Shown: positions 1 to 58,573 of the stretch, one piece after another | Numbering within the stretch: position 1 is the stretch's first letter | Layout: every line of letters starts with the position of its first letter | Assembly: GCA_003344405.1 (NCBI GenBank) | Contig: NOWV01000012.1 | Location: forward strand, 248,001-312,000 | Direction: 5' to 3' | DNA length: 64,000 nucleotides | Source: Trichoplax sp. H2 | Lineage: Eukaryota | Position numbers and translations under genes: made by a program | The notes under the pieces: model-generated | Database searches by the model: none | The model's input: only the letters and a program-made list of their open reading frames with translations | Told to the model about the DNA's origin: nothing

Positions 1-306
1 TACAGCTCGTACTAAAAGCTGTTAAAACCGCAATATTTCACTTTCTAAATGGCATAAGGGAAGTAAAATTTTTAATTGTAACAGTTTTACATTAAGCATA
101 GAGAAGAATACAATAATTGCTGTACTGTACAGTGTAGACTGGACACTCACAGTAAAACTGTTTACTGTGCAAGTTCGTATACGAGTATTCGCGTATATGT
201 AGTACAGCATATACAGTACTATAAGTAAAAGCTGATGTCTACACGAGTCTACACGAAAGTGCCAGGATTCTTTAAATCTTACCAATTGATTGCCTATATT
301 TATAGG

Positions 307-547
307 CGGCAGTAGCAGAATTATCAATGGCTTCAATTTAAAAGGTGAGCTAAAGTTACGTCTTTGAAATTGAAGCCATTGATAACTCAGTGGATTTCCT
401 TTACAGTATTTATATTATTATTATGCAGGAGAACATGATGCGTTACGAGTAGAATTAAAACCCAGATTTTATCATCATAACGAAATGAATGAAATTGACC
501 GGATTGCTCCTATCGTATACGCATACTGGAAAACTTTTGTGGCTTGA
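307..547 (+). other. Possible terminal exons of an unrecognised gene or a spliced non-coding transcript (307-344 and 429-547)
   Basis: TTTATAG acceptor before 307, AAAG|GTGAGC donor after 344 and TATGCAG acceptor before 429. The joined frame reads GSSRIINGFNLKGEHDALRVELKPRFYHHNEMNEIDRIAPIVYAYWKTFVA*. No family recognised. Confidence 0.2.
321..385. repeat. Perfect 19-bp inverted repeat (hairpin)
   Basis: TTATCAATGGCTTCAATTT (321-339) is the exact reverse complement of AAATTGAAGCCATTGATAA (367-385). The 27-nt spacer pairs further (AAAG/CTTT). Confidence 0.9.
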
Positions 548-3500: not shown

Positions 3501-3900
3501 TCATCTCATCCTCTTCATATTTTATAGTTAATAGGATGTTTATAGCGCATACGCGCCTAACATTCTACAATATACACTTATAGTATAAGAATAGCGTAAA
3601 AAAGATCGATATCGTTATCCTATAACAAAAATAGATGATTGATCACTAGACCAGTAGGTTATACTTTGGGGGTGTTGAAAAATTCAATGTGCTACTCTCA
3701 AGTATAGTTATTACAGTGTCTAGATAACACTTTTCCTTTTCGAGAAATATCCATATCCCCCCTGCTATCTAGTCTTATTATCTAATCTGTCAAAAGAGAA
3801 TATTTAGCATTCTTCATTTCAGGACACCTACGTGGATTAGAGGTAACATTAAGAAAAAATATTCAAGCGCGATTGAATAAAAGGATCGAAAGAGGGCATC

Positions 3901-36056: not shown

Positions 36057-36990
36057 ACTGTACAGTGTACAGTTCAGCGACCTCTGACTTTGTGGCGCGA
36101 CAGTGGATTATTTGAAGTTTTTACCGTGTACAGTACCAACACTACAGTGCGCTCATTGTACAGTACTGTACTGTACGGTACAGTGTACAGTACAGTACTG
36201 TACACCGTACACTACAGCCAGATTAAATTGGCTAGAACAACAGAAAAATAAAATAGTGTGCGCAAAATTTATGCCTAAATTGAGTAAAATTATTATAAGA
36301 GTGTGGCTTCATAACTCCAATTTCATCATCATAATCATGTTCTACAGTTATCCTACTGGTACATCTCAATAGAATTATTAGCAAATCATAACTTTAGTTG
36401 TTCACCCCGATTTTGCCCGTGGAAATTTATCTCGCTGCACAGTGTGCTGAAAGAATGGCTTCTTTCAGTCAAAAGCATACTATGTCTCTATCCATTACCA
36501 ATTTCTATACAGTACTATCACAGCTTTAGCGAAAACACACGTATGTATAGTACAGTACAGTACAGTACAGTAACGTACAGTACTGTACTGTACATACAGT
36601 ACAGTACTGTACACTGTACAGTACGTGAGTGACATGACTGCATGCACTACAGTACAGTACAGTACTGAATACAGTATATTGTACTGTACACTGTACTGCA
36701 CAGTGTACAGTACAGTACAGAACAGTACAGTACTGTACAGTACTGTACAGTACAGTCACTCCATATTAGCCATATTGTACTGTAGTGTAGCCCCTTTACG
36801 GTACACTGTACACTCCGGTATACACTCAGTTCCTGCTAGCCGCTGGCCGCCTCTGCAACGCACTACAGTACTGAATACAGTATATTGTACTGTACACTGT
36901 ACTGCACAGTGTACAGTACAGTACAGTACAGTCACTCCATATTAGCCATATTGTACTGTAGTGTAGCCCCTTTACGGTACACTGTACACT
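36057..36990. repeat. TA(CAGTA|CTGTA)n low-complexity array in the CEP97/CDC40 divergent promoter
   Basis: Dense mixed-orientation TACAG/TACTG pentamers with TACAGTGTA/TACACTGTA variants at about 36128-36217 and 36549-36990. Confidence 0.9.
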
Positions 36991-37036
36991 CCGGTATACA
37001 CTTAGTTCCTGCTAGCCGCTGGCCGCCTCTGCAACG
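36644..37036 (+). repeat. Tandem duplication (~217 bp + ~177 bp) of the sequence immediately 5' of the CDC40 ATG
   Basis: Near-identical copies at 36644-36860 and 36860-37036 (e.g. CACTCCATATTAGCCATATT..GCTAGCCGCTGGCCGCCTCTGCAACG). They differ in pentamer number and in TCAGTT versus TTAGTT. Confidence 0.9.
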
Positions 37037-37045
37037 CCGCCGAAA

Positions 37046-40000
37046 ATGGATGATATTGTGAATGCTTATGATAGCAGTAGCGACAGTAGTCATGATGGAG
37101 AAAGCTCAATAACCACGAGCAATGTCGACTTTCAAACTCTTAAAGAAAAATTCAATTTAAATAGTACGCCACAAATTTTAATTAAGGTATGTCATGGAGA
37201 TCTTGGATAGAGTTTTGACCATGTGTAGTATGCAATAAGAAGAGGTTATCACGTAAAACAGAGTTGATATTGGATCAACTCAATGATGATAGATAAAAAT
37301 TGGAGCTAATCCAATGGTCATCTCATTGGAACTGGAGTCTAACCTCGACATAACCAGCTATTGATTACCTCATGCAATAACTAATATTCCTTTTATTTGT
37401 ATAATAGGAAAGTGTAAATATTAGTCGAAAGATCGATAGCCACGCAAAAGAAGTCAGCTATAATCCTAAATATGAGGAACTGTTTCAACCGGAGGTAAAT
37501 AAGTAGAAAAATCGTAATGGAATAATGTGTATTTGCGCATGTAACAGCACTGCTAACCCATGCTGGATAGTTAGCTAGATATACTTATTACTTACTACAG
37601 TATAGATGATCAATTGCGTGCATATGTAACAATGTATGAACGACACAGCGTCGTCAAGTAGTATTCAAAGGAGCTATTCTTTTGCACTATACATTTACAT
37701 ATTGTCAAACTGACCTAAAAAAAATACGCTTGACATACTCTATTTCTAACCTTTGCATTGGAGTCTGACATGGCCTGCTTGCACTTTTTTATTCATTACA
37801 TTACATGTATGACTAACAATACATAGTCTACAAAGTTATTTCCTAGTATATTTAACTACACACTGTAAATGAGTTTGATGTAAGAACATTTTGAAAATAT
37901 TACAGTACTGTAATTCTATAGCAAAGTTGCTTTGTGGTATACACAATAAAGGAATTTAATATGAGGGTTATTACAAATGATAAATCCATGTGCACTGTAA
38001 GCATTGCCAGCATTCTACTGTAATGTTCTATCTATCAATTCTTAAACCAATACTTAATTGTATATGAAACCGCATCGATGAGCTTAGGTTGGACCTCTAA
38101 ATCCTTTCAAAACCAAGCAGCAAGCGGCACCAAAAAATACACTCTCAGGTGTGAACTTCAAGATAATTCTTCTATAAAGTGACCAAGTAACTCTTTATAC
38201 AACACATTTTAGTTTAATGTATGTAAATTTTACTACCTTTTAGGCTATGTAGAAGATAGTCATTTCAATGATTTCCAGTTTGAAAATCAAAGAAGGACAT
38301 TTTCTACCCACGGTAATAAATATACCCTAAACCAGTTATTTTTTATTACTAATAGTGAAATTTACTATTATTATAGGTGAATGGTTAACTGTCCTAATCT
38401 ATTGCTTATTTATTATTTACATTAAATGCAGGTTACGCGTTAGACCCTTCTGTTGGTAATAGCAATTCTTCTGGAAATAAGTTCGTACTATCTGCAATAA
38501 TGATTGAATTAATTCAAGCAATCTCAAAGGTCTTTACTTATGTGCTCTTTGAATTACATTAACTTATCTACGATCCTTAATTAGCATTATCGGCGATATC
38601 GATATGGCCAGTCAATTAGACGGTAATGAAAGTTTAATTCATGTATTTTTTCAAATTGGATTCTCTTCCATTTTTAATTTAAAGATTAAACTCGATATGA
38701 ACTGAAAGTTTAATCAATCTTTAATGTGTAGGAAGGACAGTTTTTGAATCTGGTAAGAGATTCGGAATTGAGAAAAGAAAGCGTGGCGAACGAGGAGATC
38801 CATCGGATATTGATTGTTATAAAGGTCTGAATCTTAGCTGATAAACCACTATACGCACTGTTATGCCATTGTAAATACTGTACTTTACTAATATTGTAAG
38901 AGTACGAATCTATAGGATGCTTTTTTAGTTAGATTACGTAACTTTGTATACATACTATAGGTCCTTGGGCAGGCTATGTTGATGAGAATAAAATTGCAAA
39001 ACCTACAGAGGTGAGTTATGCTGCTTTATCTTAAGAAATTGGTTGTCACAATGCGATGGCGTAAACGTTAAGGAAAATTTGCGTACATCTTTTGAATCAA
39101 TGTAGGAAGAGCAGGCTGTACTTGATGATTGGAAAACAGTAACAAGCAAGAAAAAGAAGGAAGAGACTGTTGTCGATGAAAGAAGCACACTTCACAGTAC
39201 GGCATCTATATATGTATTGCCTTTGATAACGAATCCAAGAAATTAGGATGCTTTACTATAATGTAATCGGGTTAATACTAATAGCTGACTTTGCTCCCGC
39301 AGTAAAAGATGCATTGGATTATCAAGGGCGATCTTTCCTGCATCCTCCTCAAGATATGGGAGTTAGACTCAACTCCGAAGAACCACCGGAAAAATGCTTT
39401 TTACCGAAGAAGCATATTCATACTTGGTAATATACACGTATATACTTAGAATAATGTATCTCTTTAAAAGGTCCGGTAAATAAGTATTTGTTACACGCTG
39501 ATTAGTCTAACACGCGTACTCCTTCTTATCAATGGCGCAGGACTGGTCATACAAAAGGCGTATCTGCTATTCGTTTATTCCCACTTTCAGGTCATCTGCT
39601 TCTGTCCTGTAGTATGGACAGTAAAATTAAGGTCTGTTATGCTTTTGGGATAGATATTGTATGATAGTAAAAGATAATGAAAAATTTATTATTAATAATA
39701 GCTATGGGAAGTATACGGCAATCGAAGATGCATTCGTACTTACCTAGGTATACTTCGAAAGAATAGATTTTACAATGTATAAAATATTTTCATTTATAAA
39801 AATTTTTATTTAAAACCGCTTTCAATTTATGCCTTCGTAGGACATGACAAAGCTGTTAGGGATATCTGCTTTAATAATGATGGCACTGAATTTTTAAGTG
39901 CAGCCTATGATCGTTATATAAAGCTATGGGATACAGAAACTGGTAGGCTGCTCTATATTATTGTTGTTAACTAGCTTGATATTCGATCACGTTATATTTC

Positions 40001-41300
40001 GTACATACTATTTTAGGTCAATGTAAAGGTAAATTTACTAACAAAAGGATTCCTTACTGTGTCAAATTTAATCCGGAAGAGGTAATGCATATCGAAGTGT
40101 TTCTTAAAACAATTGCAATCACGATTTTGAAATGGCTGTCCATCATTCTATGTAGGATAAACAACATTTATTCGTAGCTGGATTAGCAGATAAAAAAATT
40201 GTTACGGTATGTATTGGATCTTTCGATGTAGCTTAACTCTTGTATTATTTCGAGCAAGCATTGCCTTCTAGCTTGACGTCGGCTTACATTTTATATAGTG
40301 GGATATGAGAGCTAATGAAATTGTGCAAGAATATGATAGGTAATCTAACATCTTGTTATCTTACACTGGCTATTGATTTATAAATCTGAGACAATTTAAA
40401 TTTATCAATCAACTTTAGGCATCTTGGTGCTGTTAACACCGTAACATTTATAGATGACAATAGACGATTTGTGAGTACTTCAGACGACAAGAGTTTACGT
40501 GTCTGGGAATGGTATGTATCACTTTAAATACATTCTTGTCATCGTCATCGATGCTGCAGTACATTATTACTGAGCGCTTTCCTTCCATAACAGGGATATT
40601 CCAGTAGATTCGAAATATATTGCTGATCCTTCCATGCATTCTGTACCAGCTGTAACTCTTTCACCTAATCGTATGTAGACCTAATTTTATTTTATTAAGT
40701 GAAATTAGTTGTTAAAGTCATAATTCTAGCATAGATTTTATTTTATTTTAAAGTTAAGATTTTTAACTATTCGTTTCGCACCAGAAAAATGGCTAGCTTG
40801 CCAATCTATGGATAATCAGATACTGATATATAACGCGCTAAGTAAGATGAGAATGAACCGAAAGAAAGTATTTAAAGGTCACATGGTTGCTGGATATGCA
40901 TGCCAAGTTAATTTTTCACCAGATGGAAGGTAAGCTACAATAGAATACCTACTCATATATAGTATGCACCTAAGTTACGAATTGGTAATTCATAGATAGT
41001 CACAATTGAACGCGTATTGCTAACATATTTTTCTTATTTTGTTTCTAGTTACGTGATATCTGGAGACGCAGACGGCAAGTTATTCATTTGGGATTGGAAA
41101 TCAACGAAAGTATATAGGTTAGATTCACATAAAGTACTGTGATTTTAATTTATTATTTCTCAAAATAATAATTATCAATTTTTTATACTAGTAAATTTAA
41201 GGCTCATGATCAAGTATGTATCGGATGCTGTTGGCTACCTCATGAAACATCGAAAGTGATTACATGTGGTTGGGATGGATTAATAAAGTTATGGGATTAG
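37046..41300 (+). CDS. CDC40: Pre-mRNA-processing factor 17 (CDC40/PRP17), WD40 repeat protein, ~21 exons
   Basis: Exon 1 is 37046-37186. Conserved [93 protein letters not shown], and C-terminal [12 protein letters not shown] (TAG ends at 41300). Confidence 0.95.
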
Positions 41301-43236
41301 GTCATCGTTTTAAATTTATTTTATATTGTATGATTAATTAACGTACACCGAATCTTCGGATAATTTATCTTTTACCTGATATTAAAGCTTTATACTATAG
41401 ATATTAATTCTACAGTTTAGAATTTAGTCGACAGTTTTCATACAGGACCGCTGAAAACATATGAACATTGTTATAAAATTCAAATTTTCAACAATTTGTT
41501 GCGTATTATTCTTTGAAATTGTTATAACAATTCCTTCCATTACGATATGAAACGAAATTAATACCATAAGTTTATGGTTATCATGGATTATTGCAGTTTT
41601 GTAAACTAGTTATAATGATAAGCATAATGCATGGTTGCATATCTTATAAATCTGATATCGACCGTATTGGATGGTGATTATTGTTAACTAGTCACCTGTC
41701 CTTTTAAAGTTTGGACAGATCATCTACGATCGATGTTAAAAGAATTACTAACTCAACATAGTCGATCATCTGAACACCTACGTAATGCATAAATTTAATG
41801 GATCTTGATATGATACAGCATAGAAAGTCAGTAAAAATGGTATGGGGTGCAGTCATGATGTGGTATCGTTATTCATTGGTATTAATTTGCTTGTAAATCT
41901 TCTAAAAGATATAGGTGATTAAAAACGAATATAAAATTTCATGACGTTCTATAATGTACGTATATAGTATGGTAAACCGCCTTCTGTTGCTATGCATGAA
42001 TTTTGCAGTTTGCGAATGTATATTATATCTGTCATGGTTAGAAGATTGAAATTCTAATGTCTTGAGAATACGCATAGTGCAGTTACGGTTTCGTGAGCAC
42101 GTTACATTTTATGAAATGCTACAGAAGTAAACAAGGTTTACTAGAGAAGTTAAATATATGATTGCGTTATTGTTTAATGTATTACATAGTTTACTTTCAA
42201 TCCGGCATTTTACAAGTTATAGTCTAGTGCACTGTAGGTAGCTTTGAGGTGAATTGCATCATTATAATCTTCAAACTGGTACACAAGAACTACCAGATAC
42301 AGAACACTTTGATAGGAATAATTTTTAAACATGTAAAAGTTACACTCTGATGAGGTGTTAAAGAAAGTTAGCATGCATCCGTTACAGCTCTTTATATCCT
42401 AAGAAGCATTCTTAATTTAGCTACCCTATGTAAATGGTGATTGGCTTGGCATTTATTTTGAGGTGATGTACAGTACAACAGCTACCGTACAATAAAAAGG
42501 CCATAAACATGTATCAACATTGGCCGGCTGAGTTGAATATGCAATCATACAGGATTCGATAGAAGTATAAACGTTTATATCTTGCAATAATAAGGAAATA
42601 CGATACTGACGCAACAATGACTAGTAGAAAACTTCAGCAAACAGCTAGCTGTACAAAAAATTTTAATCATATGCGTACTTCAATAAACGATTGCCACATA
42701 CTAGTGCCAAGTATCTATTCTTTGTAACTGTGATACTAGCAGACAAATAATATTGAACAAAAGATGGACCATTAGTAAGGACTACGAGGAAATAGTTAAA
42801 GGAATATCGACTATACCAATTTTTGAATGAGAAAAGTACAGGATGGCAAACTCAACAACCGTACTATAAAAACAATCTCAAAAAGCACTAAGTTTCTCCA
42901 TGAACGAAATTAAGAGATAAATTAATTGACCAGATACTTTTTAACGTTAGGCTAACATTTGGGGTATGGTAGGATCTTCAGTAATTAACATTGTTCCGTC
43001 AATGTGATGGCCAAACGCTTACGATCACAGAAGTTAACTGATCATGAATACTATGGACAGTAACAACCGGAATAAGGCATGATACAAAATGATTTCAAAG
43101 TTATCAATAACAGTCGAATGATGTCAGATAAAGAAACTTTACAGCCTGTCATTCTTATTTTAAAAATTATTAATCTAGTGTCTGGTCGAATTACATCATC
43201 GACATCTTTCTAAAGACGAGATATAATTATAAAGCT

Positions 43237-43701
43237 TTAGTATGGTCGACTTCGTCTCATACGCGGTGGTACTAATGCGATGTCTAAATAATCACCAATT
43301 TGAAATTGGTCACCAAGAGTGATTTGGTCTCCTTCGCTTTTTTGGCCAGAGATAGTTTTACCGATATCTCTTAATCTATAACCACCACGCTTATCTGGAT
43401 AGACAATACCAAATTCAAAGAACGTGCCTCTACGTCTTGAATCGCTATTAACCTCCTTAATCAAACCCATCAGTTCTTTTAAAGTAGCATCTTTCCACGT
43501 GTAAATTTGTAATTCGTTCATTGGAACTCTACCTCTAGAATATTCTTCCATTCTATAATGCCTTCCAACGTTATAAAATACTCTTAAGAGAAAGGGACAA
43601 ATTTTTTTCCTATCTACAGGTACAATTTTCTCTTGATCTTTATCTTTTCCAGACTCAGGTTCATAACGCCTTTGCTCGCCAGCATCACGTTTGTCGGCCA
43701 T
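43237..43701 (-). CDS. SAP18: Sin3-associated protein 18 kDa (SAP18), single coding exon, 154 aa
   Basis: Uninterrupted ORF from ATG 43701: PVDRKKICPFLLRVF, NELQIYTWKDATLKEL, FQIGDYLDIA, and C-terminal RMRRSRPY typical of SAP18. Confidence 0.95.
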   Translation of the reverse strand: MADKRDAGEQRRYEPESGKDKDQEKIVPVDRKKICPFLLRVFYNVGRHYRMEEYSRGRVPMNELQIYTWKDATLKELMGLIKEVNSDSRRRGTFFEFGIVYPDKRGGYRLRDIGKTISGQKSEGDQITLGDQFQIGDYLDIALVPPRMRRSRPY

Positions 43702-43893
43702 GATAGCTTGGTTAGTCCAGTTACTAGCTCGATCTTGCTGATGAAGGCATGTACGCACGCGTGCAGCATCAACCAATCTTCATGGAGGTAAGAGGTTTAT
43801 TACCTCTATGGTACCTTTATTGTGCTAGCTGCTGTATGGGTAGCAATACTGAGTACGGTAGTTGAGGCGCAAAGAGTTGATCACCTCAGCAAA

Positions 43894-43990
43894 GTGTACA
43901 GTACAGTACAAGTGTGTCAGCTGCGTACAGTATTTGTTACGGGCAATGTACTGTACACTGTACGTACAGTACTGTACTGTACAGTACGGT
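43894..43990. repeat. TA(CAGTA|CTGTA)n array at the SAP18 / STI1-domain gene divergent promoter
   Basis: GTGTACAGTACAGTACA and GTACTGTACACTGTACGTACAGTACTGTACTGTACAGTACGGTA. Confidence 0.85.
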
Positions 43991-44565
43991 ATTCTGTATG
44001 GAAGCAGGGTTAAAAGAAATGAAACCTACGGTACGTTACTAAGATACGTGTAACCACGGTACCATGTTAATTTTTCGTGAATTTAATCTCCGTTTTAGTC
44101 TCCAATTGAGATACAGTATATGAGTTAACCGACTAGATGAATGCACATAGAATCTAAAGTTCAGTAAGTCAAGATATGAAATATTAAGATATGTAGTCAT
44201 GACAGTTGATGGGCTCTAAATACGCGTATGCGTGTGTGTACGTGTATATGCCTGTCTTACTATGTGAATTTACGGGTATAGTACTATATGTTTAAATGAG
44301 CTTAATAAATAATTATAATGGTCAACGTCAACTTTACCTATACCTACACCAGAACCATATTATATAAATTGTAGTACTACGATATCACTGTTTTTAGCCC
44401 ATTTCAGTACACAGACTAAAAAGAGAAAGAAAATTGCTAATTAAGTTTTTGTAAGATTGATCGGGTGCAATTTGTCAGCATCGAAAGTTACGAGGTATCG
44501 TTTTCTTTCTTGCAGATACGTCGTATAATTCATTTTTCTTGTAATTGAATTGACTGCATTTTCAT

Positions 44566-46325
44566 ATGGCGGAAATAGATGATGATTCTGGTAAGTCTGT
44601 GATTTATACTTTAACGATGATGACTCGATACAGTACTCTAACATGCTTTGTGCATCGTGTGTAATACTGTAGTGTTACCGATTTAAATATCTATGAATGC
44701 ATGGCTATAAGATATTAATGTAACAAATATGAAGAATGTTAAAATAGTGAATATGTTACAATATAACCTGCAGATGTTGCTACATTATCATAGTTTATAC
44801 GTACTTACTGGTATAGAGATGCAATTTTAATGTAGAAATCCCTGAAATGTAGGTGTTATCCGGCTAGTATTCAACTATTATTTATTTCTTAGATGTGCCT
44901 CCACTGGAGGATATGTCAGACTTGATCGGTAAAGTGCAAGCAATGCGTACAGAAACATCTCAAGAAGTTTCATATAATACAGTTGACTCTAATTACCCCA
45001 GTGGCCAGTCTGCGATAACGGATACTAAGCATGAAGAAACTACTCAGTACAAGGTAACAGAGTACACGATGCTAGTTACGTTTTTTCAGCTTCATTTAGA
45101 TTATTTATTTTAATATTACTGTATTTGTACATTTTAGGCTAGTAATGAATCAACAGCTAAAAAGAACAATTTAACACAAAGTAGCCAATTTGGTGGATTT
45201 AAAAGCGGATTTCTCAATTCGAAGCCAGCTAAAGTTAAATCTCATGGTAAAGTTGAAAAAAAAGGAGGTAAAGGTGCAAAAGAGGATGATTTGGAATTTG
45301 TCAAGCCCAAAAAATCAAAAGAGGATGAATTAAAATTTCAAGAAGTTCAGGATGCTATAAATCAATCTCATCCGTTACTTAAAAATAATGGTAAATTTGA
45401 TTTTGTATATCAATGCTGTAGTATCTCTTATACATACATTTAAAATTGAATGAATTATATACGGACAGAGTTTATCGTGCTATCAATCATGGTTAAGATT
45501 AAGCGAAGAAGAATAAATAACGATTGATCTATGATGTAATTCTGTATACCTTTAGTATCATATCATAATTATAGGTTTTCTTTCTTCATACCTTAGACTG
45601 GGTAACCAATGATTTATTGACCAAGATACAAGCGAATCCTCGTATGCATAAGCAAATAAGTGATCCACGCTTTGTTGCTGCATTAAAAAAATTTGAAACT
45701 GATCGTGAAGGAGCAATGAAACAGTTTCAGGGTGACCCTGAGCTTCAGCAATTTTTCACAGATTTTTGCCAACTTATGGGAAATCATTTTCTTAATATTT
45801 CTAAAGATAAAGATCCCTCAAAATCAGGTATGACAATGTTTTATATCTTTCTGAAAAATATTATATTCTAATAGTAGTGTTATACATATTAGATCAGAAC
45901 GAAGCTGCAGCTGCAACGGAAAATAGGCTTACTCCGAAGAAGCTCTCGCCAGAAGATATAAGAGCACAACAAATAGTATCCGATCCCAAGATAGCAAAAA
46001 TTTTAAACAATTCTGAAGTAAAAGAATTCATAGAACTTCTGAAACGTAATCCAGAAGCCGCTCAGCAGTAAGATTATATTATCAAACTGTTGCAAAAGTA
46101 ATAATCAAAAATCAAATTTTAGTTCATTACCGTATATATTTTACAAAGTTAGAATATATCGCATTAGTAGTCGCCATTTCTGTGTCAGACAACTAACGTT
46201 TTTATAAATTTAAAGCGTTTATCATAATTTTTCTACATAGGTATTTATTCACCGCTCCTAAGGAATTACGGGAGAAATTGCAAAAGCTTGTTGAGTGTGG
46301 AGTTTTATCAGTTCAAAGAAGTTAA
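44566..46325 (+). CDS. Uncharacterised STI1/HOP DP-type domain protein with an N-terminal acidic PXLE motif, ~309 aa, 6 coding exons
   Basis: Phase-consistent exons 44566-44590, 44893-45053, 45138-45390, 45597-45827, 45893-46067, 46241-46325. Protein: MAEIDDDSDVPPLEDM..FGGFKSGFL..WVTNDLLTKIQANP..ISDPRF..GDPELQQF..IVSDPKIAKILNNSEV..LKRNPEAAQQYL..LREKLQKLVECGVL. The DP/NP helical repeats resemble STI1 C-terminal domains. Confidence 0.75.
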
Positions 46326-47568
46326 AAATATTTCAAAGAGTACTACACAGCAAGCATATAGTGGGTTTTTTTTTGTAAATACTTCGGTCTTAGTTGCTGT
46401 TCTGTAGCGGCATAACTGTAATATCCTTACAGAAACGGATGCTAAATTTTAGATAATTAAAACTCCCTCTTGCAGGTTTATTGGCTTACGCTAACTTATT
46501 ATTTCACTCATATTCTGATAACTTCGATGGTGATAGTTGCAATATAACAGCCATGCGATCTAGTTACTGCCGCATTGGCAACCTGTATATGATGAATCTT
46601 CAATCTCTTTTGTTTCATGGTATGTGTACTAAAAGTTATATATCACTAACCACAAACTGCGTGAAATATACTGTAATACTGTACTACCGAAGTGTTCAGC
46701 GTGAACACACGATACAAGTACAGAGTATACGAACGTGCATTTTTCAATTAAGTGAAACAGTATTTTGCTTATTTGTGGTAATAAATTGAAAGCTCATTAA
46801 GTCATTCGGTTGAACTAATGTTTATGGAAGTACAGTATAATTGTACCGATACAGTAATTTTAATTCCGTGAATGCACGATGACGATAGTTTACGTCTGAA
46901 GATTATGCATTGCCCAAACTGATGATAGGGCATACCATGATTCATTAAATTATAATACCAAATAGATTTTGATATCTGGAGATTTTTACGCTCTCAGACA
47001 GTAAATCCAGTTACATGCAAATGTAGAATAAAAACATACTAGTTTTTAAAAATAGAAATCGAGGTTTCCAGAAATTAGATACTGTACAAGTATTTGTGTA
47101 AGACCCTATCGGTCTCATCCTCGCTATGGTATTTCAGCTTCTAGAAATAAAGGTTATAGCTCTGTAGATTGGATATAGATGGCACGCTTACCGATAGTAT
47201 CTTACTTATTATAAGCATCATAAATTTTACCATTTTGCTATTATATTTGATCAGGTTAAATGATTTCAAACTCATCAATACAAGTTACACCTAGATATAC
47301 AAGGCCTTTGGGTCTAACCACCTAAATTTCATTGACTGTCACCACGAAGTATATTTGCAGCTAGTGCAACAGGAGTTACAGATTTATGTCGATTACTACA
47401 TGCGAAACTAAAAAGCAATACTTAATAATTAAACTCCCTTGATGTCACAGTATGAAATCAAAAAATTCCTAGGTTGTAATAATAGTACTCAATGAAGGAA
47501 ATAGCGAAATATTTTTATCAATTTGACCCGAGATAGAGCCGTTTATTAACAAACGATGTACAGTAAAT

Positions 47569-49897
47569 TTAGTTGTGACCAAGAGCTGCTAGCGTTTCAT
47601 TTACTGATTTCAATTGATCAGCTTTATCAGCTTCAGCTTCCCTTTTGAATTTCTGTTGAAAATGGTCAAGTAGCATATAATTAGAAATAGGCTTTCACCT
47701 AAGCATCGCAATATGTAAACATTCAAATCTTGGATAGCGTTCAGTCATACCTGTAATCTTCGTTTATTTTCATAGAAGGCTTTTGCCTTAGCCTTTCGTT
47801 TTTCCTCCAAAGTTGATATTATATCATTATATTTCCAACCAACTTCACTCGATAACTTACCGACTACGGTAAATTTGCGACGTGGCTTAAGTTGGACTAC
47901 TCTCAGAGCAGCAGGAACAACCAAACGCTTCATTTTATCGTAAGGAGCTGGAATGCCTTCAAATGTTTTCAATCTGTTGAGAGCTTCTTCACCTCTTTTC
48001 GTTTTGTGAGGAACCATACCTAAATAACGCGGGGTCATCAGAAATGAGTTCAAGTCATCTTTATTACGATTACTTTGTCGATAAATTGCTACTGGCAGCA
48101 GATCTCTTTTAATTGGCTAACCTCGTACGGTTCTCCACAAGATACGACTAGGTGCTCTGAAATGGAATGGGCCTCTTCTAGGATTGACGTTACAACGTTT
48201 TCTCAGAAAATCCAGATACTTCACTAAAAATTTGCAAGCAATGAAAGGAATAGTAACAATATGAGTTTACAAGCTGTTACCTAAGACCATTTAGATAGCG
48301 TCAATACATACATTTATTTCTGTAGAAGCCACCGCTAATGTTCAACTCTTCACATCGTACTACTACAACTCTTTGACCTAAATTTTAATCACCATACGTT
48401 CGTTATTTTATAAATTTATGATAATGTTAGTATATCGATGCTAGTTTGAAATTATTCATTCTTACCGCTTAAAATTGTTTTAGCAATTGTAGAAGCTAAT
48501 CGGCCCAATAAGTGATTCCTGCCGTCAATGATAATTGCCTAATTGTATAAGAATAACCAAAAAATAATGCGTTATACGAGCAAGACATATCATCACGATT
48601 CATGATTATAAAAAAGCTAAGGTTGCGAACATCAAAAAGAGTTGATCAAGACAAATGAATCTGTAGCAGGTTCAAATGTAAAACTAGTTATTTTTATCAA
48701 GTCCTATTAACATCGACTTTACACAGAGATATAAATTAGCATGGGACTGAAGAAACAGCCATCAATTGCAATTATTATGATCTTTGTTCATGCATTTTCT
48801 ATTACGGCAGTGTGATGAAGTAAAACATAAAAGCTATTTTTAAGTCGATTGCCTAACAGTTGTACTATTGAGGAGACCGAGGGCTTACTGAAATGCATGA
48901 GAAATCATTACATTGTACATCGACATAGGATAGCATGCAGCAATGGTGAATTTGGAGTCAGTAAAAATGGGGTGATACTTCGAATTATACGGCTATACTG
49001 TATACTCGAACGTCAATTTTTGAACCAATTTAATTCTATGGGACACATCCTAGATTCTATTTCTGGACCGTTGGTCTAAAGAGTTCATGAGTATGGCATA
49101 TAGCTCAAGAGAGCAATTAATTTATTCAGTTTGTTCACGATAAACCAATTTTCTATCACCTACGTATAGTACAGTACAACATTATTTTTCAACTTCATTG
49201 CAGTGTGGGAATTCTAGTTTTGTAGATCACCTCAGAATTAGCGAATAAAACACCACTACTGTACTGGATGATATAAATATACCGTACTTGAAATGATAGG
49301 ATCATAACCATCTAAGGTGGTAGCGAGATATCGGACATACAATCTCGAGAATTGAATGTATTTACTTGAGTGCAGAACCTAAATATTCATAGTTTTGTGG
49401 AACTTTTTTCAACAATAATGGTGCAACGTGAGAAATGGAGTACACGATGTGCCATTTCCAGATAGGTTCTGTACGAGTATAAAGTACGCTGACATACATT
49501 GCCATACAGCTATTCATGATAATCTCTGTGTCGAAATTTCAGATTCTTTCACAGTACCACATATACAATAATTCGAAAATGTTTATGATTCCATTTTGAC
49601 TCCTCAATCGTATTTTAAAGCGTGAAAGTTTAGGCTTGTATAGTCGCTTCAGCTTTTACGACTTCTAAAGTTCACGAGCGAGGCCGTTCAACGGTCGAGA
49701 ACGATCAGCACATTATCAAAGAAGTCTCTGCGTATACATATAAATGACTAAAATATCATGATTTATATGGTAACATGGAGAATCGTACAGTGTAATTTAA
49801 AGAAATCTACATCTATTTCTTTAATCTATAAAGGACGATTGTGGATAAAACAGTCAAAAAAATCATTTCATTTTCTACTTACTTTCTCGAAACCCAT
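47569..49897 (-). CDS. RPL13A: 60S ribosomal protein L13a (uL13), 202 aa, 6 exons
   Basis: Exons 49897-49883, 48538-48466, 48377-48312, 48223-48122, 48019-47751, 47652-47569. Motifs [56 protein letters not shown] and [10 protein letters not shown]. Confidence 0.97.
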
Positions 49898-49917
49898 CTT
49901 CCTTGACTTGCTTTACC

Positions 49918-50002
49918 GAAAGAGAAGGAGTTGAGTATTCCACATGGTGTTATACGGGGCGGCCACGCGATCGTGCGTACTAAAGGGCTCTGGGCATGCG
50001 CA
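49918..50002 (-). promoter_or_regulatory. RPL13A promoter: 5'TOP/TCT-like pyrimidine tract, GC box and NRF1-like site
   Basis: CTCCTTCTCTTTC (49930-49918) lies 20 nt upstream of the ATG; GGGGCGGCC at ~49956; TGGGCATGCGCA (49991-50002) matches 11/12 of the NRF1 consensus TGCGCATGCGCA. Confidence 0.6.
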
Positions 50003-50056
50003 TTAGACAAGGACTCCCCACTCATTGCAGTAGAGATTCTTATTACAGATCGGACT

Positions 50057-51400
50057 ACTGTACTACTGAGTCATGACCATATCTTCTGACTACAGTAGGT
50101 ATACTGTGCTCTGTATACTGTAGTACTGTACGGAACATAGTAACCATGTACTGTACGTACAGTACAGTACAGTACACTGTAGATTCTACAGTCAGACTAC
50201 TATACTGTACACTGTACAGTACAGTACAGTAAAACATTTGAAACGATTGCCATACAGTATGTGAAACGGGATGGGAGTCGTGTAGCCACAACTTCGAAAA
50301 TCAGTCCTAAAATCAGGGCAGGTATACGTTTCTGTGATGAGATGCAATTTTAGGACTGATTTTGGAAGTGGTTGCTTTTAGGGGCTCGATGATCCAAATC
50401 ATTCACATTCAGAATAGTAGGTGTATCCGTTGATCCAAAATTTGCCACTAGTTCTCACCGGCTCAGCATGTCTGAGGGACTCGTGGTACAGTACTAAAAA
50501 TCATGTCACCCTATGGCTGTAAAAGTATTAGGCTTAAAGCGACATTGGTTTTCCTTGCAAATGAGATCTGCCGAATTTAGCAACATCGAACATACAGTAC
50601 AGTACAGTAGTGTGGACTGTGGAGTGCTAGCTTGCTAACCCAGTTACACAGTACTGTATGCATCAAACTGTCCGTTGCCGTGAATACAGTATGACTGTAA
50701 AGTATACTGTACTGTACACGAGAGACCTTATACAGTACAGTACTACATACTGTACTGTCGAGCTTGGAGATTCTCTACGTACTGTACACTGTACAGTGTA
50801 CAGTACAGTACAGTACAGTACAGTACTGTGGAGTGCTAACTTACAGTACCTAACCCAGTTACACAGTACTGTACTGTACTGTACTGTATGCATCAAACTG
50901 TCCGTTGCCGTGAATACTGTACAGTACAGTATGACTGTAAACTACAGTATACTGTACTGTACACGAGGACCTTATACTGTACAGTACTGTCGAGCTTGGA
51001 GGTTCTCTACTGCACTGTACAGTACAGTACAGTATGTACAGTGTACAGTACGTACAGTAAAGTACTGTACAGTACTCTAGAAGATACTTTTACCAGTTAT
51101 GATCAATCTGCTTATTTACCTACAGTACTGTTATTTCTGTTCAGAAAAACAACAAACAACATAGAGTGCTAACTTACCTAACCCAGAATGCATCAAATTG
51201 ACAATTGCTATAGAGTAGAGTATAAAGAGACCGTTTCTAGGTAATTTCGAAACGACTAGACTGTACTGTAAACAGAGAGGAAGTTGGTCTGCTGTACTGT
51301 ACTGTTTTGTACTGTTCCAGTACACTGTAGAAGATTCTTTTACGAGTTCAAATGATCCTATTGAACCATTTGTGGAAACCAGTGGGTACAGTACGGTACT
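50057..51400. repeat. TA(CAGTA|CTGTA)n arrays and three related repeat copies in the RPL13A/sestrin divergent promoter
   Basis: Pentamer arrays at about 50057-50230, 50594-51075 and 51260-51400. Related copies start at 50616, 50825 and 51164, sharing GAGTGCTA..CTAACCCAG..ATGCATCAAA. Confidence 0.9.
50291..50369. repeat. 23-bp inverted repeat (1 mismatch) with 33-nt spacer
   Basis: ACTTCGAAAATCAGTCCTAAAAT (50291-50313) versus ATTTTAGGACTGATTTTGGAAGT (50347-50369). Confidence 0.85.
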
Positions 51401-51810
51401 GTAGTTGACTCACCGGTGTGATAACTCGTCTTGATAAGCCACTAAACGCATCTTTTGATCATTACAAGCTGGCAGTCATGACTTTCAAGTGATGTCAGCG
51501 CTCACTCGTTGAGATTACTTGTAGTTAGGAAGTGATGAGTAAAAGGAATTGGTAGGCGATCATTTGATGTATGCATGAGTTAGTAGAGAGATCCATCATT
51601 CTTATATTGAATAGTTGTCGTTCTACTACAACACAACTTGGATAACGATTCAACAAGTCAATAGAATAAGGGTTAATTGTATTCTTATCATCGTCAACGT
51701 ACGCACATACGGACGTTGCGGGTGCTTTTGCTTGTTCCATTTGCAGCTTGTTGTTTAGGTAATCATTTGAACTTGTCCTACTCTTCTTATCGATACCAAC
51801 CACTGTGAAG

Positions 51811-54800
51811 ATGAAGATGGCCGATGATACTTTGATGTCATGCGAAGGTTTCGAATTGTTCACTGCCCTACAAAATAGCGATACAGATGGGAGACACAAC
51901 GTTATGCAACATATCATGGAGTTAATGTGTGAATGGGCTAGAAATACTCAAGTTGATCTGGAGGACGAAACTAAATTAAAGCCTTATTTATGTACTCTAC
52001 TAAGAATATCTTACGAATGTCCGTATGAAGAAGAACGTCTGAAATGTCAAGAGTTATTACAGGATCTAAAGGTAAACCAATAGCATTTTTATTGTCATAA
52101 GCTGAAATCGTTTGAAGTTGAATCATCATGTTGGCACTAAACGATATTTGTGACGAAAGTATTGATTGTATCATACCAATCATTCAACGTTGGACTTCCC
52201 TTAAAATTGTACACTATCTGTCAAAATAGCCACAATCTTGCACAGACATACGTTGTGATAGGTCAGTTTAGCTTTTCAGCGCAAAAAACAACCTACAATT
52301 TTATTTGAATTTTGATACCAAATGACTAAGGTGAAAAAGAATGCATTCGATAGCTAAATGAATTTGAAATGAGCCCATATAAAATCGTGTTAGTACAGGC
52401 TGGTAGATACTGTAGTAAAAGAATTGACGAACGTACAATGACGAGTATTGCATCATTTTCAAGTCAATGCTCTATCTCGTACAAGTTTTTTTTTCACTAA
52501 TAGAACAGCTTCTGTATAATGAAGATTTGAATACAGATTCCTTGACATTAATTCATCATCAATGCTGTAGCTTCGACAAAAATTGGATCAAACATTCCAA
52601 TCGAACTTATTATTTTAACCTTAAAGTAATATGATTGAGGTTCTTTTGCTTTTTGCAGTGTATTTGCTACGTTGCACGGTGCACTCATTTGCTGAATCAG
52701 TAACTATGATTTGCACGATTCATGTTCATCAAATTCAACCTATTGCATTATCACGACACTCCTGGGATCAATGTTGTTCTCACTACTACTCTTGTTATGA
52801 ACATGAATTGAAACTAATGTTTTGTAGAATGCCATCATCATAAATAAATAATATTGTACAGTGCAAATAGCAACTCATCGGAATCGTTGTGAACTACTTT
52901 GCACCATACGTACATGATATATATATAATATCATGAAACCACTTACTGCTACATAATTACTGCTAACTTTCTATATTTAAATTTCTAGCTGTAACTACGC
53001 TCCAACGTATTACAAAAATCTGAGATAGTTGTTAATACACAATGGTATTGTAATACTATATTGTGTCGTAATTGGATTTTTATTGATTTGTCATCCATTA
53101 CAGAAATGAAGATTTTGAACTGACAGTATTAATATCTTAGTGTTGATACTACTGTCTACTGTATGTGCAACTGCTACTTATAACTAACCATCATGAAAAT
53201 TGATGGCATGATAACTACTGATAAACTAATACTGTACAGTACGGTATACGCGAAAGACACTATATAGTAATTTAAAATTTTTTAATCATGATTGTTTTGA
53301 TCATATAGTAGAATATCACCCAATCTTCTGTTCACTTTATTTAAATGATTGCCATGAATTACTTGACTGCCTGTGATAATAGTTGATAGACAACTCTATT
53401 CACTTAGTTCTAGTAGAACGATAGTTATTCGTATTTGATTGGTAGTAGTACAGAACTAGCGATTGATTGATCAATTACGAGTACAGTACATGTAGTACTC
53501 GTATATAGTGGGACAATTGGTAAATGATGTTGTATCATATTTGTTTTCTTTAATTTGCAATCTCTCTCTTTTACAGAATGAATACCACATCGACATTCCT
53601 AAAAGATTACAAAACAGGCCGTCGAAATTTGTAGATATCTCGGAGGTATTTGATAATTTATTGTACTGTACTATACTACTAGAATACGTGCTTGTTGGAT
53701 GTTAAAAAATGTAGTTTCATCTACTTTTTTCAATGTTGACCATGGAAAATACTAAACCTAGTTACATGTATGAGTCATAATTATTCCTATCACTCGCTTC
53801 CATCTTGGTGGGTTACTAATCGTATGAACACTGCACCATATTTTATGTACACGATAGTCATTCTATAACCATATTAAAAATTTTCAATCACTTTAAGGAA
53901 GCAGCTTTCATTTCAATATGCCCAACGTATTGGACAAGCTACAGTATATTAGGCGTTTAAAATTTTGATAGGATATTTTTGCGAAACGATTTATGCTTAA
54001 GAAGGGTGGCCGCGAATTGATATTTTAATTTATCTATGACAAGATCAGTGTACTGTAGTTTGATGATTGGGCGATGGATCGCTAGCATTCCGTATTAGCA
54101 ACGATGTCAAGAGTGCCAATTTGAGTGGGTGATTTGAAGGACTGACGAATAAATTAATCGACTGAGTGATAAACAAGTGGCTAAATGAAACTTGTTCAAT
54201 TTTGCTTCATAGTGTTGATCTATCCATAATATGCCATGCAATGGTCAAGATACACCTTGCATATTTTCCCCGCCAAATGATTCATCTTTGTCAGTTGAAC
54301 ACCATTAGCATGGTTGATCTGCATGCCAATTTAGCATCCTATCTAGTCTTGTGAGCGGTCGATGTTAAGTTATAGCATTGTTATTGCCCCTTTTATTGAA
54401 CGTTTCATCATTCCAATAGTGCGTTGGTCTACCTACTATTCACACTCTTGCAAAATACGTACCGCTTCTGATTTAGAACTATATCAACATTATTCCTTTT
54501 ATCTAAATATGCATTTCCTGTAAGTTAACGTTAACATATATTAAGTCATCCACTTTTACGGACATATGCACGATATATATATATAACGTATTCGAGGAGA
54601 AAAGTAAAGATTTCACCCACTCATTTCTATGCGCCGTAACTTCCTCATTATACTGTACAACGAATCACGTACAATGGAATAATCTGTCTGTACACACTTA
54701 TAACGCCTACTTTTATTGATCCGAGTATGTACTTTACAACATTACATACGTTTTTGTATATTTTTAGAAGCGCACGGGACACGGCACAGGGCTTGAATTA

Positions 54801-57800
54801 ATTCAATCCCTTTGTCAGTTTTCAGTGCGTGGATCACGTACGATAGAAAGATCCATGGCAAAGTTCTTGTTCACTTTTACTGTTCATGCAGATCGATGTG
54901 TTCGTGAATGAAGGGATAAAGAATTGCAAGTTCTGTAGCCACAGTACGTAACAGTATCGTAGTTAACGAATGCAATGCCCAACAAGTTGACGGATCAATG
55001 TGACAAGGTTGATCAATTATATTTTATTTTAGTCTATTCGTGTGATGGATTACTATCGATTTTAGACTAGAGTATAACATCTTCAACAAATAGGGTTGAT
55101 TTCTGCAAAATAGTTGGATTTAGTTTATTTATTTTATTTTTCTTTGAGTTATTTTTCAAGTTCAAAGCACGGCATGTTCAATGTGAGAGATCTCGATCTT
55201 GTAAAAGCCGATAAAGATGATGCAATATCCGCTTTCGTTCTTTACTGCGCATGTTTTCTTGCTTGCCAACTTCATTGTCATTAATTGAGAGAGACAATAC
55301 ATTTCTACAGTACGCAGTACAGTACAGTGCACTATAGTCTGTTGAGAGAGATAAAAGAAAACTTTTTATGCGTTACTCTAAACATCGCTCTGAACAAGAC
55401 TAGCTGTAGCAGTACAGTACACGTACGTGACGACAACGACTGTCATGAACTTCTAGAGGCGTCTGGAAGTCCGTGACACTGTGCACTGTAAAATTAGAAT
55501 ACCAAATACTGTAGCTGATGAAAGTTGAATGAATGCAACAATAAAATCCTACAGTACTGTACTGTATTCAAGAGCTTCTTGCACCAGTACAGTACACGTA
55601 CAGTACTGTACAGTACGTGACTACAACGACTGTCATGAATTTCTAGAGGTATCTGGAAGTCCGTAACACTATGCACTGTAAAACTAGAATACCAAATACT
55701 GTAGCTGATGAAAGCTGAATGAATGCAACAATAAAATCCTACAGTACTGTGTACTGTATTCAAGAGCTTCTTACTATATTGTACTGTACTGTAGTTCACC
55801 AAGAATATACTGTGGGAGTGTATATCAATGACGCAACATCGACCATTTCTTTCACTTTAAAATCAGAAAATTCTCCTAGCAAATTTGTAGACTAAAGAAA
55901 GATACGTTTAACTTGCGACATTGTACCAAACTCATTTTCTTTTACACTGAAGAATCAGTATTAATTGTCATGTAAAGCTCGTTCAGTAGATCGAGTTGGC
56001 TGGTGTTAGTTATCGTAGACAAGTATGCTCTGCAATTTGAAATTATTTTATTGTTAATTTAGCATAGTGTACTAGATAAGAAATTATCGAGAGTAAAAAT
56101 GATCAAATTGTTGTTATCTTCTACTATTCACTATTAATATGCTTATTATCACCTTTTGTTGTCATAGATTGAAGTGTATAAAACCATGGAGGAATCGGTA
56201 ATTTATTGTTTTTCTGCTATATTTTACCCAATATAGAAAAAATATTGTAGCTAGACTTTTACCCCTAAATAAGTTTGCAATTATAAAATAACATGATAGC
56301 AAATAGTTTCCTTGATAATCTCCTCGACATGTAATATGAATTCTTGGCCTTGTTCTACTTATGCATCTCATATAGGTTCAAAATCTTTTTATTGAATCCT
56401 ACCTTACTACTGGTAGGATTACCAACATTGCAAGGGTAATGTCTTGTCATCCGAAATATATGAAAATATTCCAGGAAACTCATAATCAGTTGTTTTATGG
56501 CCCTGGACTATTACCTCATCATTGGAGGCATTACATTGCTATATTGGTAAGGAAGGGCAGGCCTATCAAAGGAATCAAGCCTAATAATTTAGTTTACAAT
56601 AATATGCTTATCACCATTTCAACTACATAAACTGCTTCAGAATTCAATCTATGCACAATGATACAACTAGAAGTGAATAATTAGGACATTCTCTGATATA
56701 GCTTTTAAATACATTTCTTATATGAATATTTTGATAGGCCGCTAGTAGGCATAACTGCTTGTATATGATGCAGTTACACGCGGAAGCGTTTCGATTATAC
56801 CAGAGAGATATCCACTGGTTGAAAGGATTAAGCAATGCTTCGCAAAAATTGATCAATTTCGAGGATTTACTCAATCGTCTGACTTATCAACCATGGACAA
56901 TACAAAAAGAGCACATCGATGTATGCAGCAAAATTACTACTTGAAAAATAATAAATAATCTATATAATCAATCACTACTCCCAATATGAGTATAGACAAG
57001 ATTATTATTTTTAATTTTAACAGGAGCTTGTAGTAGGGGAAAGTGCTTGGTCTATTTCCGAATTGGTACAGGCTGTTGTTATTGTTAGTCATGTAGTGTC
57101 AGTGGTAGGATTTTATTACGGATGTGGAATACATGATGAAATTGACTTCAAGGATGGACATACGTATTCTGAAATGGCTGCTAATGGAAAGAATGATGAG
57201 GATAATTTAGTTCATGCAATGAATCAAACCAAGAAAAAGCTAGATATAACTGATGAAGAAAAACGTCAAAAATTACTTGCAGTCATGTCGGAATATAAAA
57301 GTTTACAAGAACGTCATGAATTACTATCTGAAGATAAAGTGCTAGAAGAAATTGAACTTTTCTTTCGACAAGAAAGTTAGTTTTTTAGGATTGATATTTA
57401 TTTGGCGTATAATAATAATTAATTAATTATTCGTATCGCTACCGTACACAAATGATAACATAATTATAGAGATTGATTATTAAAATTGTTATGGATGCAT
57501 AAAATTACTAGTAGAATTATTCATTATTTTAATCGCTCTTTCTAAATTCTCTATTGTAGAAAATTTTAACGTAACCAGATATTTCTAAATACTTTCATAT
57601 TAAAAGCATGTATTTGGTAATACTCAAATGTTGTTCATACATTTTTCATAGCTGACCATTTGGCCGACGAATCAGAAATAGAGGATACCAAAATTTCTAT
57701 AATTGATAACTTTATGGACAACAGATCTATTGAACAATCGACCGATTTTGCCAAATTAAGTTTAGAAGATAGACAACAGATGGCATTACGCACTCAAGTA

Positions 57801-58573
57801 CGTATCAGGCTATATCTCAAATGTAATTAAAAAAAATATTTCATCAACTTAAATTTTTATAATCTTGCATTATCTATTTAACAGGAGTTTTCTTGGGAAG
57901 ATCAAGGATTTTCTGTAGTTAGTCGATACTATAACGATATTATCGAATTACTGGATGAAAAATTTCGAATAATCTATAATTTAACTTATAACAAGTAAGA
58001 TGATGCAATTATCAAGTGACTACCAGCTTTGCTATTATAGATAATGATTTTATAAACTCTTTTATTGCAGAATGGGTGATACTACTAATACAGACACAAA
58101 AGTATTGAGAACAGCGGTCTGGAATTATATTCAAATGATGAAAGGCGTATGGGATGACTATCTCTATACATCCATTAACAAACTAGTTGCAACAGACTTC
58201 AAGCAGTATATTAAAATGGTATGAATTCGCTATTGAATGGGAAATAATTGTTACCATTGCTATCATATTAATCTCTCGAATTGGTATACAGGTTGCATGC
58301 AAACCGGAAAAGACTTCCCAATACTTATTTCACTCCGGTGTTTATTTATATAATGGATCCGAACAGGTAATTTTATCCTTGATATATTGAAAAATATCGC
58401 TCAAATATTGTATCCTACTTAAAATATAGCCACTAGACAGTATTTACCTTGCTTAATTGATAGTCATTATGTTCAAATTGTAGGTCCATCTAAATCTGCT
58501 ATTCCTGGAATCTCGAAATCAAGCACAACTCCTACACGCTTTACGCGCAATTATGCAGCATTCGCTTGCGTGA
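51811..58573 (+). CDS. SESN: Sestrin (PA26 family), ~544 aa, 11 exons
   Basis: Exons 51811-52071, 53577-53645, 56168-56197, 56376-56546, 56738-56920, 57024-57375, 57652-57797, 57885-57994, 58071-58218, 58292-58366, 58484-58573. Motifs [89 protein letters not shown]. The start could alternatively be ATG 51817. Confidence 0.92.
54770..54946 (+). ncRNA. Candidate structured intronic RNA (three hairpins, 3' ACA) in sestrin intron 2; family not identified
   Basis: Hairpin 1 (54770-54830): GCGCAC/GTGCGT, GGCA/TGTC, AGGG/CCCT, TTGAAT/ATTCAA. Hairpin 2: TGGATC/GATCCA. Hairpin 3: AGTTCTT/AAGAATT, GTTCATG/CGTGAAT. The many G-U pairs work only on the + strand. ATAGAA at 54843-54848 and ACA at 54941-54943. 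Confidence 0.35.
55410..55772 (+). repeat. Tandem duplication (171 bp + 188 bp) embedded in a TA(CAGTA|CTGTA)n array in sestrin intron 2
   Basis: Copies 55410-55580 and 55585-55772 share ACAACGACTGTCATGAA..TCTGGAAGTCCGT..GCTGATGAAAG..CAAGAGCTTCTT. Copy 2 has 15 extra nt at 55601-55615. Confidence 0.9.

Follow-up and report, generated by a model that had tools for sequence, protein, structure and literature searches.

Two-orientation ACAGT/ACTGT pentamer arrays between divergent gene starts in a 64-kb window of the Trichoplax sp. H2 genome

The pentanucleotide ACAGT was reported as the dominant microsatellite of Trichoplax adhaerens, accounting for 78% of its pentanucleotide repeats, located upstream of genes (54% at distances of up to 1 kb, 85% of up to 5 kb) and particularly frequent at genes for ribosomal proteins and kinases, and a role as a transcription factor (TF) binding site was proposed (Wang et al., 2010, PMC2871265). 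More recently, repeating ACAGT and a transposon-derived ACGG were named as motifs affecting predicted Micro-C maps of T. adhaerens (the Chimaera paper, 2026, PMC12817080), and promoter hubs were described together with a motif from the terminal inverted repeats (TIRs) of a Mutator element, present in placozoan housekeeping promoters and in roughly a third of all promoters (Kim et al., 2025, PMC12221973). In our literature search on ACAGT repeats in Trichoplax, only the 2010 study and the Chimaera paper were found relevant, and no paper was found that joins excision footprints, mariner elements and tandem microsatellites. Here, we analyzed a stretch of 64,000 bp from Trichoplax sp. H2 (contig NOWV01000012.1, positions 248,001–312,000; hereafter the window), in which a preliminary description had noted promoter arrays of the unit TA + C(A/T)G + TA and read them as stacked excision footprints of Tc1/mariner transposons. 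The arrays are the Trichoplax (ACAGT)n promoter microsatellite already described (PMC2871265), an identity that had been missed, and do not constitute a new class of element. Their units, however, point in both directions in a near-random order, which slippage does not account for.

The window, with a G+C content of 32%, contained 189 heptamers of the form TAC[AT]GTA (TACWGTA, W being A or T), 104 of them TACAGTA and 85 TACTGTA, compared to 15.8 ± 3.9 expected under a first-order and 56.4 ± 7.5 under a third-order Markov model (100 simulations each). The five regions previously singled out were confirmed: 118 of the 189 heptamers lie within their 2,964 bp, at 20–83 per kb, vs. 71 in the other 61,036 bp (1.16 per kb). 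The four main regions are located at 36057–36990 (39 heptamers, 41.8 per kb), 43894–43990 (8 heptamers, 82.5 per kb), 50057–51400 (53 heptamers, 39.4 per kb), and 55306–55793 (16 heptamers, 32.8 per kb). At all four, Tandem Repeats Finder (TRF) detected period-5 arrays with the consensus GTACA or GTACT. The fifth region, at 120–220, is a weak GTAC-W cluster with two heptamers (19.8 per kb). Outside the arrays, solo TACWGTA was the most over-represented heptamer (71 vs. 13–31 expected, z 7.3).

Analysis of the unit showed that the repeated entity is the palindrome GTAC plus one base. GTAC occurs 364 times in the window, and the distance from one GTAC to the next was 5 bp in 86 cases, 7 bp in 15, and 4 bp in 4. 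The spacer base in GTAC-N-GTAC was A in 54 cases, T in 29, G in 3, and C in none. GTAC reads the same on both strands, and (GTACA)n equals (GTACT)n on the other strand, so that a switch in orientation amounts to a single A/T difference. The longest in-phase chains comprised up to six GTACs, and the middle GTAC between two good ones was unbroken in 36 of 40 cases. Spacings of 7 bp included GTAC-ACT-GTAC (8) and GTAC-AGT-GTAC (4), and the only genuine array variants were TACACTGTA (n = 10) and TACAGTGTA (n = 4). Both had been listed in the preliminary description, but the other variants given there did not hold up: TACATA and TATGTA were not above chance outside the arrays (80 vs. 77–92 expected, both strands), TACGTA was marginal there (56 vs. 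35–56 expected), and all three were scarce within the arrays (2, 2, and 4 occurrences, respectively, in 2,867 bp). A related word, ACGGTAC, has ten copies in the window, all of them on the + strand, six of which stand beside arrays (36175, 36798, 36974, 44028, 44056, and 51393). It is one transition, at a CpG, away from the array word ACAGTAC, and may be related to the "repeating ACGG" transposon motif of placozoan loop anchors.

The association of the arrays with promoters, as claimed before, was borne out by the gene map. Three clusters lie between divergent gene starts, namely between an LRR/IQ gene (−) and a WD40-repeat gene (+), between SAP18 (−) and an STI1-domain gene (+), and between RPL13A (−) and an exon at 51811–52072 (+) that is followed by sestrin. 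The fourth precedes the first conserved exon of sestrin by 0.6–1.1 kb, so that the arrays agree with a location within about 1 kb upstream of genes. Transcription start sites were predicted, with the exception of the 5′ exon of RPL13A, which is backed by an RNA contig. The preliminary description had placed the fourth array in "sestrin intron 2", a term that stems from a gene model of its own; in the Trichoplax annotation, sestrin is a partial gene that begins at 56385. Its statement that no array lies in an exon was largely correct, as the arrays avoid supported coding segments, but two solo heptamers (47559 and 61485) do occur in the 5,311 bp of supported coding sequence. The first 30 kb of the window contain RhoGEF and RhoGAP exons and no arrays.

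In the intergenic stretch between the LRR/IQ and WD40 genes, the first cluster consists of 36057–36217, with the spacer strings ATTG and AAT, and 36545–36760, the densest stretch (TRF period 5, 40 copies), whose predicted fold as single-stranded DNA had an energy of −66.2 kcal/mol (z −5.3 vs. shuffles). A promoter segment is tandemly duplicated here together with its arrays (36640–37040, +), with a 128-nt core that is 98% identical. The second array (43894–43990) lies between SAP18 and the STI1-domain gene. The third cluster was divided into 50057–50235, about 130 bp upstream of the terminal oligopyrimidine (TOP)-like 5′ leader of RPL13A, 50590–51080, within a diverged tandem duplication of ~230 bp, and a weak part at 51290–51403 that adjoins the upstream exon of the sestrin region. 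The middle part contains a perfect 27-nt inverted repeat (50804–50830 and 50862–50888) in which a 31-nt spacer separates an A-run from a T-run. The fourth cluster (55306–55793) lies within a 190-bp tandem duplication (55410–55772) with copies 93–94% identical.

The irregular switching of the central A/T, noted before, was also confirmed. In the window, 15 of 36 adjacent pairs differed (17.9 ± 2.9 in shuffles), and in phased chains 13 of 34 adjacent pairs switched (38%), where ~45% would be expected at random. For comparison, at least 114 metagenome loci of (GTACW)n were retrieved with a pattern that left the spacer free as A or T; all values given for them refer to the loci listed. Only 62 of 1,328 adjacent pairs switched in these arrays (4.7%), nearly all of which have a single orientation, and the minor orientation reached at least 20% in 12 of 114 loci. 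The switch rates of the window and of the comparison loci (13/34 vs. 62/1,328) differed with a Fisher p of 5.6e-9. G or C spacers were equally rare in both (3 of 86 in the window and 101 of 2,125 in the comparison loci), and the variants in the comparison loci were chiefly A>G or T>C. Since the comparison arrays are single-orientation, the Trichoplax mosaic is not an intrinsic property of the repeat. The window arrays also depart from the single orientation and transition-type variants of a classical slippage microsatellite. In four of the metagenome loci (L004, L018, L058, and L078), spacer G/C occurs in blocks or alternations, e.g., runs of GTACG/GTACC beside GTACA/GTACT, as expected from transitions combined with slippage and unlike the Trichoplax arrays. 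Hairpin-templated flipping of units and selection for cruciforms were considered as well and found unsupported, permutation of the W positions leaving the folding energy the same in six of six regions.

The arrays change in length. Public contigs of two related organisms cover the stretch at ~0.2–0.5% divergence, and length changes of −13, −14, −5, −11, and −6 (record minus span) were found across arrays among the indels listed, in a comparison that leaves out the longest arrays (36540–36624 and 50787–50837), where the contigs break. A 5-bp polymorphism at 51121 sets an A-type unit next to a T-type unit. The duplicates within the window behaved likewise. In those at 36.6–37.0 kb, 98% identical, the sole internal indel is 30 nt long and comprises six mixed A/T units. 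The duplicates at 50.6–51.0 kb differ in their arrays by indels of 15 nt (three T units), 10 nt (a T and an A unit), 5, 12–14, 6, and 3 nt, and in their unique parts by one 1-nt indel. Those at 55.4–55.8 kb differ by 1 nt and by a TG dinucleotide, through which a 5-bp spacing becomes one of 7 bp; a dinucleotide duplication thus gave rise to at least one 7-bp variant. Together, the duplicate and strain indels indicate that slippage-type, often multi-unit turnover of the arrays is real, with whole-unit changes (5, 10, 15, and 30 bp) co-occurring with changes of 2, 3, 6, and 12–14 bp. One derived gain in the 50.6–51.0 kb copies was of a different kind: five bases, CAGTA, were added at TTA|CC, a TA without a prior unit. 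This gain is missing in the sister and in the diverged outgroup copy, and could not have been produced by duplicating adjacent bases.

Arrays of this kind are abundant beyond the window. In public contigs, the word depth was ~290–20,000 in bins with arrays, compared to ~65 for single-copy DNA, and 5,959 contigs of one sequencing run aligned to a 20-kb stretch. The sequences flanking arrays elsewhere share no consensus (agreement of the loose ends 0.37–0.44), and the arrays are therefore not parts of a dispersed element.

Overall, we consider it probable that the arrays are the known placozoan (ACAGT)n·(ACTGT)n promoter-proximal repeats, with a likely promoter or architectural role, shaped by slippage together with a second process that randomizes orientation. 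Each array is a chain of 4-bp GTAC palindromes with one A or T between them, this single base setting the orientation. Such chains take up the space that separates divergent genes of broad expression (WD40, SAP18, STI1-domain, RPL13A, and sestrin), where they would most likely act in cis as a promoter or architectural element. They could do so as many copies of a W-centered palindromic site for a putative factor, or by binding nucleosomes poorly, the TA step recurring every half helical turn. Array length changes through slippage-type, often multi-unit indels, and the second process would introduce or flip units and so keep the order of A-type and T-type units near-random.

Several points weigh against this interpretation. 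The function is one that we infer for the arrays, and the dataset is one 64-kb window with 86 spacers, in which tandem duplicates inflate the counts. The comparison loci are of uncertain organism, and many of their contigs stem from few projects, so that the loci are not independent. The A/T order was no more palindromic than in W-shuffled controls in six of six regions (z −1.04 to +1.25), and adjacent complementary pairs were not in excess within the window arrays; with palindromicity at chance level, the mosaic is left unexplained by the proposed combination. Furthermore, the array at 43.9 kb was unchanged between strains, single-copy contigs of two of them bridging it without an indel, which indicates that not every array is dynamic.

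Alternatively, the arrays could be a neutral by-product, that is, functionless microsatellites that form and are retained in promoter DNA free of nucleosomes and prone to repair, their placement reflecting tolerance in a compact genome. The length variation between near-identical strains and young duplicates is consistent with this, as are the avoidance of coding segments and the position of the arrays upstream of the core promoter rather than on it, such as their start ~130 bp from the TOP-like leader of RPL13A. However, introns and other non-coding DNA are sparse in heptamers (1.16 per kb vs. 33–83 in the four main regions), and tolerance alone does not explain such placement. Neutral slippage elsewhere shows neither the orientation mosaic nor the A-or-T spacer of the Trichoplax arrays, and both the enrichment by gene class (PMC2871265) and the in silico effect on contact maps (PMC12817080), as published, argue against lack of function. 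We therefore regard a purely neutral origin as unlikely.

The origin proposed in the preliminary description, in which a cut-and-paste element with CAG(TG) ends that targets TA hops locally in open promoters and leaves stacked excision footprints that are later expanded by slippage, appears doubtful. In this model, TA-CWG-TA is left by each hop and supplies fresh TA (or GTAC) targets, which would give in-phase arrays of random orientation. Its starting point was correct, in that the array unit exactly matches the canonical Sleeping Beauty footprints TACAGTA and TACTGTA (PMC6943129). Footprints of this form consist of TA, three terminal bases, and TA, and the 189 TACWGTA in the window compare to ~16 expected. 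The nearly strict A-or-T spacer (A 54, T 29, G 3, C 0), the near-random orientation (13 of 34 switches, where ordinary (GTACW)n is single-orientation), and the excess of solo heptamers outside the arrays also stand in favor of footprints. The 7-bp variants can be read as TA-CAGTG-TA and TA-CACTG-TA, CAGTG being a common terminus in the Tc1 family. Two events fit a pattern of one unit added at a TA, namely the CAGTA at TTA|CC and the 51121 polymorphism; neither is polarized by a true outgroup, however, and most indels are of other sizes. Multi-unit indels and indels that are not multiples of five dominate in young copies (30, 15, 10, 12–14, 6, 3, and 2 bp), one change from 5- to 7-bp spacing was a plain TG duplication, the full fill-in product TACAGCTGTA occurs 0 times in the window, and TACATA/TATGTA are not enriched.

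The flanks of the arrays decided against the simplest form of the footprint model. Around TA(CWGTA)n runs with n ≥ 2, G precedes in 17 of 28 cases (p 1e-7) and C follows in 19 of 28 (p 1e-9), where 16% would be expected, and not the unrelated target DNA that footprints at arbitrary TA sites would have as flanks. These G..C flanks are incompatible with a context-free TA target, and this version of the mechanism is rejected. The boundary-phase test rejects only the context-free target; as chains in many cases end at an internal break where a 7-bp variant lies, it cannot separate random-phase slippage from an element that prefers GTAC, which would escape it and from which G..C flanks would follow. 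A source element was likewise looked for. None of the 274 stop-to-stop open reading frames (ORFs) of at least 50 aa in the window matched a transposase family in Pfam, in agreement with the earlier statement that no transposase is encoded here. No inverted-repeat element with TA-CAG...CTG-TA ends was present among the 25 longest of the 69 inverted pairs in the window; these 25 all paired array with array save two unrelated hairpins (318–388 and 50284–50376). [quoted passage not shown] This low copy number is a weak argument, because cut-and-paste hopping leaves scars without adding copies. Overall, what remains of the earlier proposal is the A/T spacer, the near-random order, and one +5 CAGTA gain, and the mechanism is unproven.

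A variant of this idea is that the arrays differ in kind from ordinary microsatellites and were built unit by unit, break-and-repair adding CWGTA at TA/GTAC in either orientation. The agent would be a locally hopping cut-and-paste element, with footprints but no copies left behind, or a domesticated transposase or nuclease still able to recognize such sites, an origin that seems to us rather improbable. With similarly slight likelihood, the arrays would then physically record how open promoter DNA was cleaved again and again, each event creating two new targets. Finally, it is highly improbable that the arrays are left over from the TIRs of DNA transposons or MITEs that target promoters, for instance the Mutator element of Kim et al. 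(2025), with both orientations derived from paired TIRs: motifs of the Mutator TIR are present in about one-third of promoters (PMC12221973), repeating ACGG from that element is named beside ACAGT (PMC12817080), and both the ten ACGGTAC copies, six of them beside arrays, and the perfect 27-nt inverted repeat from A-run to T-run would fit, but the non-array promoter parts are single-copy in three DNA runs (contig depth ~31–60), and array flanks elsewhere lack a consensus.

The genes next to the arrays were delimited as follows. Left of the first cluster, the minus-strand gene has an LRR exon at 35219–35497 and an IQ exon at 30898–31380; to its right, the WD40-repeat gene spans 37047–41139 (+), its ATG (37047) being located ~55 bp past the last array unit. 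The SAP18 coding region is at 43240–43701 (−), and the ubiquilin-like STI1-domain gene at 44566–46786 (+), with a first-exon ATG at 44566 and a subsequent GTAAGT donor read from the sequence. RPL13A (uL13) occupies 47532–49897 (−), as supported by a spliced RNA contig with CT..AC introns, and its exon at 47751–48017 matches uL13 chains (E 1e-34). The sestrin gene region extends over 51811–58570 (+), with PA26 exons from 56385 and a sestrin exon 100% identical to T. adhaerens TRIADDRAFT_25289. For the upstream exon at 51811–52072, there were no relatives among longer proteins and no Pfam match, and its membership in sestrin is tentative. A candidate mini first exon of sestrin was observed closer by, with an ATG at 56187 and a GTAAT donor, in frame with the exon at 56376. 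If this short exon is used, the fourth array would be an internal promoter rather than lie in a plain intron; from the sequence, the array at 55.3–55.8 kb may thus represent an alternative internal promoter of sestrin. The 190-bp duplication at 55410–55772 carries the word TTCTAGAG, which resembles part of a heat-shock element. Downstream of sestrin, a class II aminoacyl-tRNA synthetase gene (Pfam tRNA-synt_2) has exons at 59949–61586 (−); its promoter would be located close to the window's right end or past it.

Some further words and structures were observed in the third promoter region. The pyrimidine-rich, TOP-like 5′ leader of RPL13A, CTTCTCTTTC, stands directly before the ATG at 49897. 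About 100 bp upstream is the word GCGCATGC, resembling an NRF1 site (features noted at 49920–50010), and the pentamer arrays start only beyond this core promoter. The word CCCAGAATGCAT, which resembles a ZNF143/Staf site, is unbroken in a single diverged promoter-repeat copy (51170–51200). In the copies at 50640–50665 and 50850–50895, a pentamer array splits CCCAG from ATGCAT; the intact copy has no TA at that position. Between the arrays of this promoter there is a non-array hairpin (50284–50376) with 30-nt arms, 90% complementary, and a 33-nt loop, without an Rfam match. Near the weak cluster at 120–220, an inverted repeat at 318–388 has 27 nt that are 93% complementary and a 17-nt loop. An Rfam scan of the whole window at gathering thresholds gave no matches.

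The repeat and its association with promoters have been in print since 2010, and the orientation mosaic is the unexplained part that is worth following. It is puzzling that a pentamer repeat should mark promoters by the thousand in a genome that ranks among the most transposon-poor of animals, and that its units face either way at random when elsewhere this repeat keeps to one orientation. Should the arrays indeed be the product of a transposase-like process, they would give the first example of excision scars that accumulated to make up a genome-wide cis-element; should a factor bind to them, that factor would become a candidate for a promoter or insulator protein of placozoans, of interest for the promoter hubs described recently. 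Both questions are testable with existing placozoan assemblies and published assay for transposase-accessible chromatin (ATAC), chromatin immunoprecipitation (ChIP), and Micro-C data.

Among described systems, the loop-anchor motif of Kim et al. (2025) resembles the arrays in being promoter-resident, placozoan-specific, and tied to the three-dimensional contacts of housekeeping genes, and ACGGTAC stands beside arrays here. It differs in being a "repeating ACGG", as it is termed in PMC12817080, and tied to a transposon, whereas the window arrays have unique flanks and belong to no multi-copy element. The Sleeping Beauty footprint has the identical 7-mer, with A or T as the central base in both, but consists of one scar, left where an active element was excised and with active elements nearby. 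The window arrays, in contrast, form in-phase chains with G..C flanks and multi-unit indels, with no element in the window and in a genome reported to be transposase-poor. Promoter repeats that tune chromatin or expression are known from poly(dA:dT), from yeast promoter repeats, and from the (GA)n sites of GAGA factor. Like these, the Trichoplax arrays are promoter-concentrated, of low complexity, and variable in length, with nucleosome exclusion or multi-copy factor binding as the proposed action; their unit is a palindrome-centered pentamer, for which the published account gives such abundance only in placozoans. Ordinary (ACAGT)n elsewhere has the same unit, the same 5-bp phase, and ~4–5% spacer G/C, but switches orientation at 4.7% of adjacent pairs compared to 38% in Trichoplax. 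The closest match is the microsatellite of Wang et al. (2010), with the same organism, unit, upstream placement, and link to ribosomal proteins, represented here by RPL13A. The account of ACAGT in that paper treats it as a simple microsatellite and possible TF site, to which the arrays described here add the two-orientation mosaic, the GTAC-plus-W anatomy, and the 7-bp variants.

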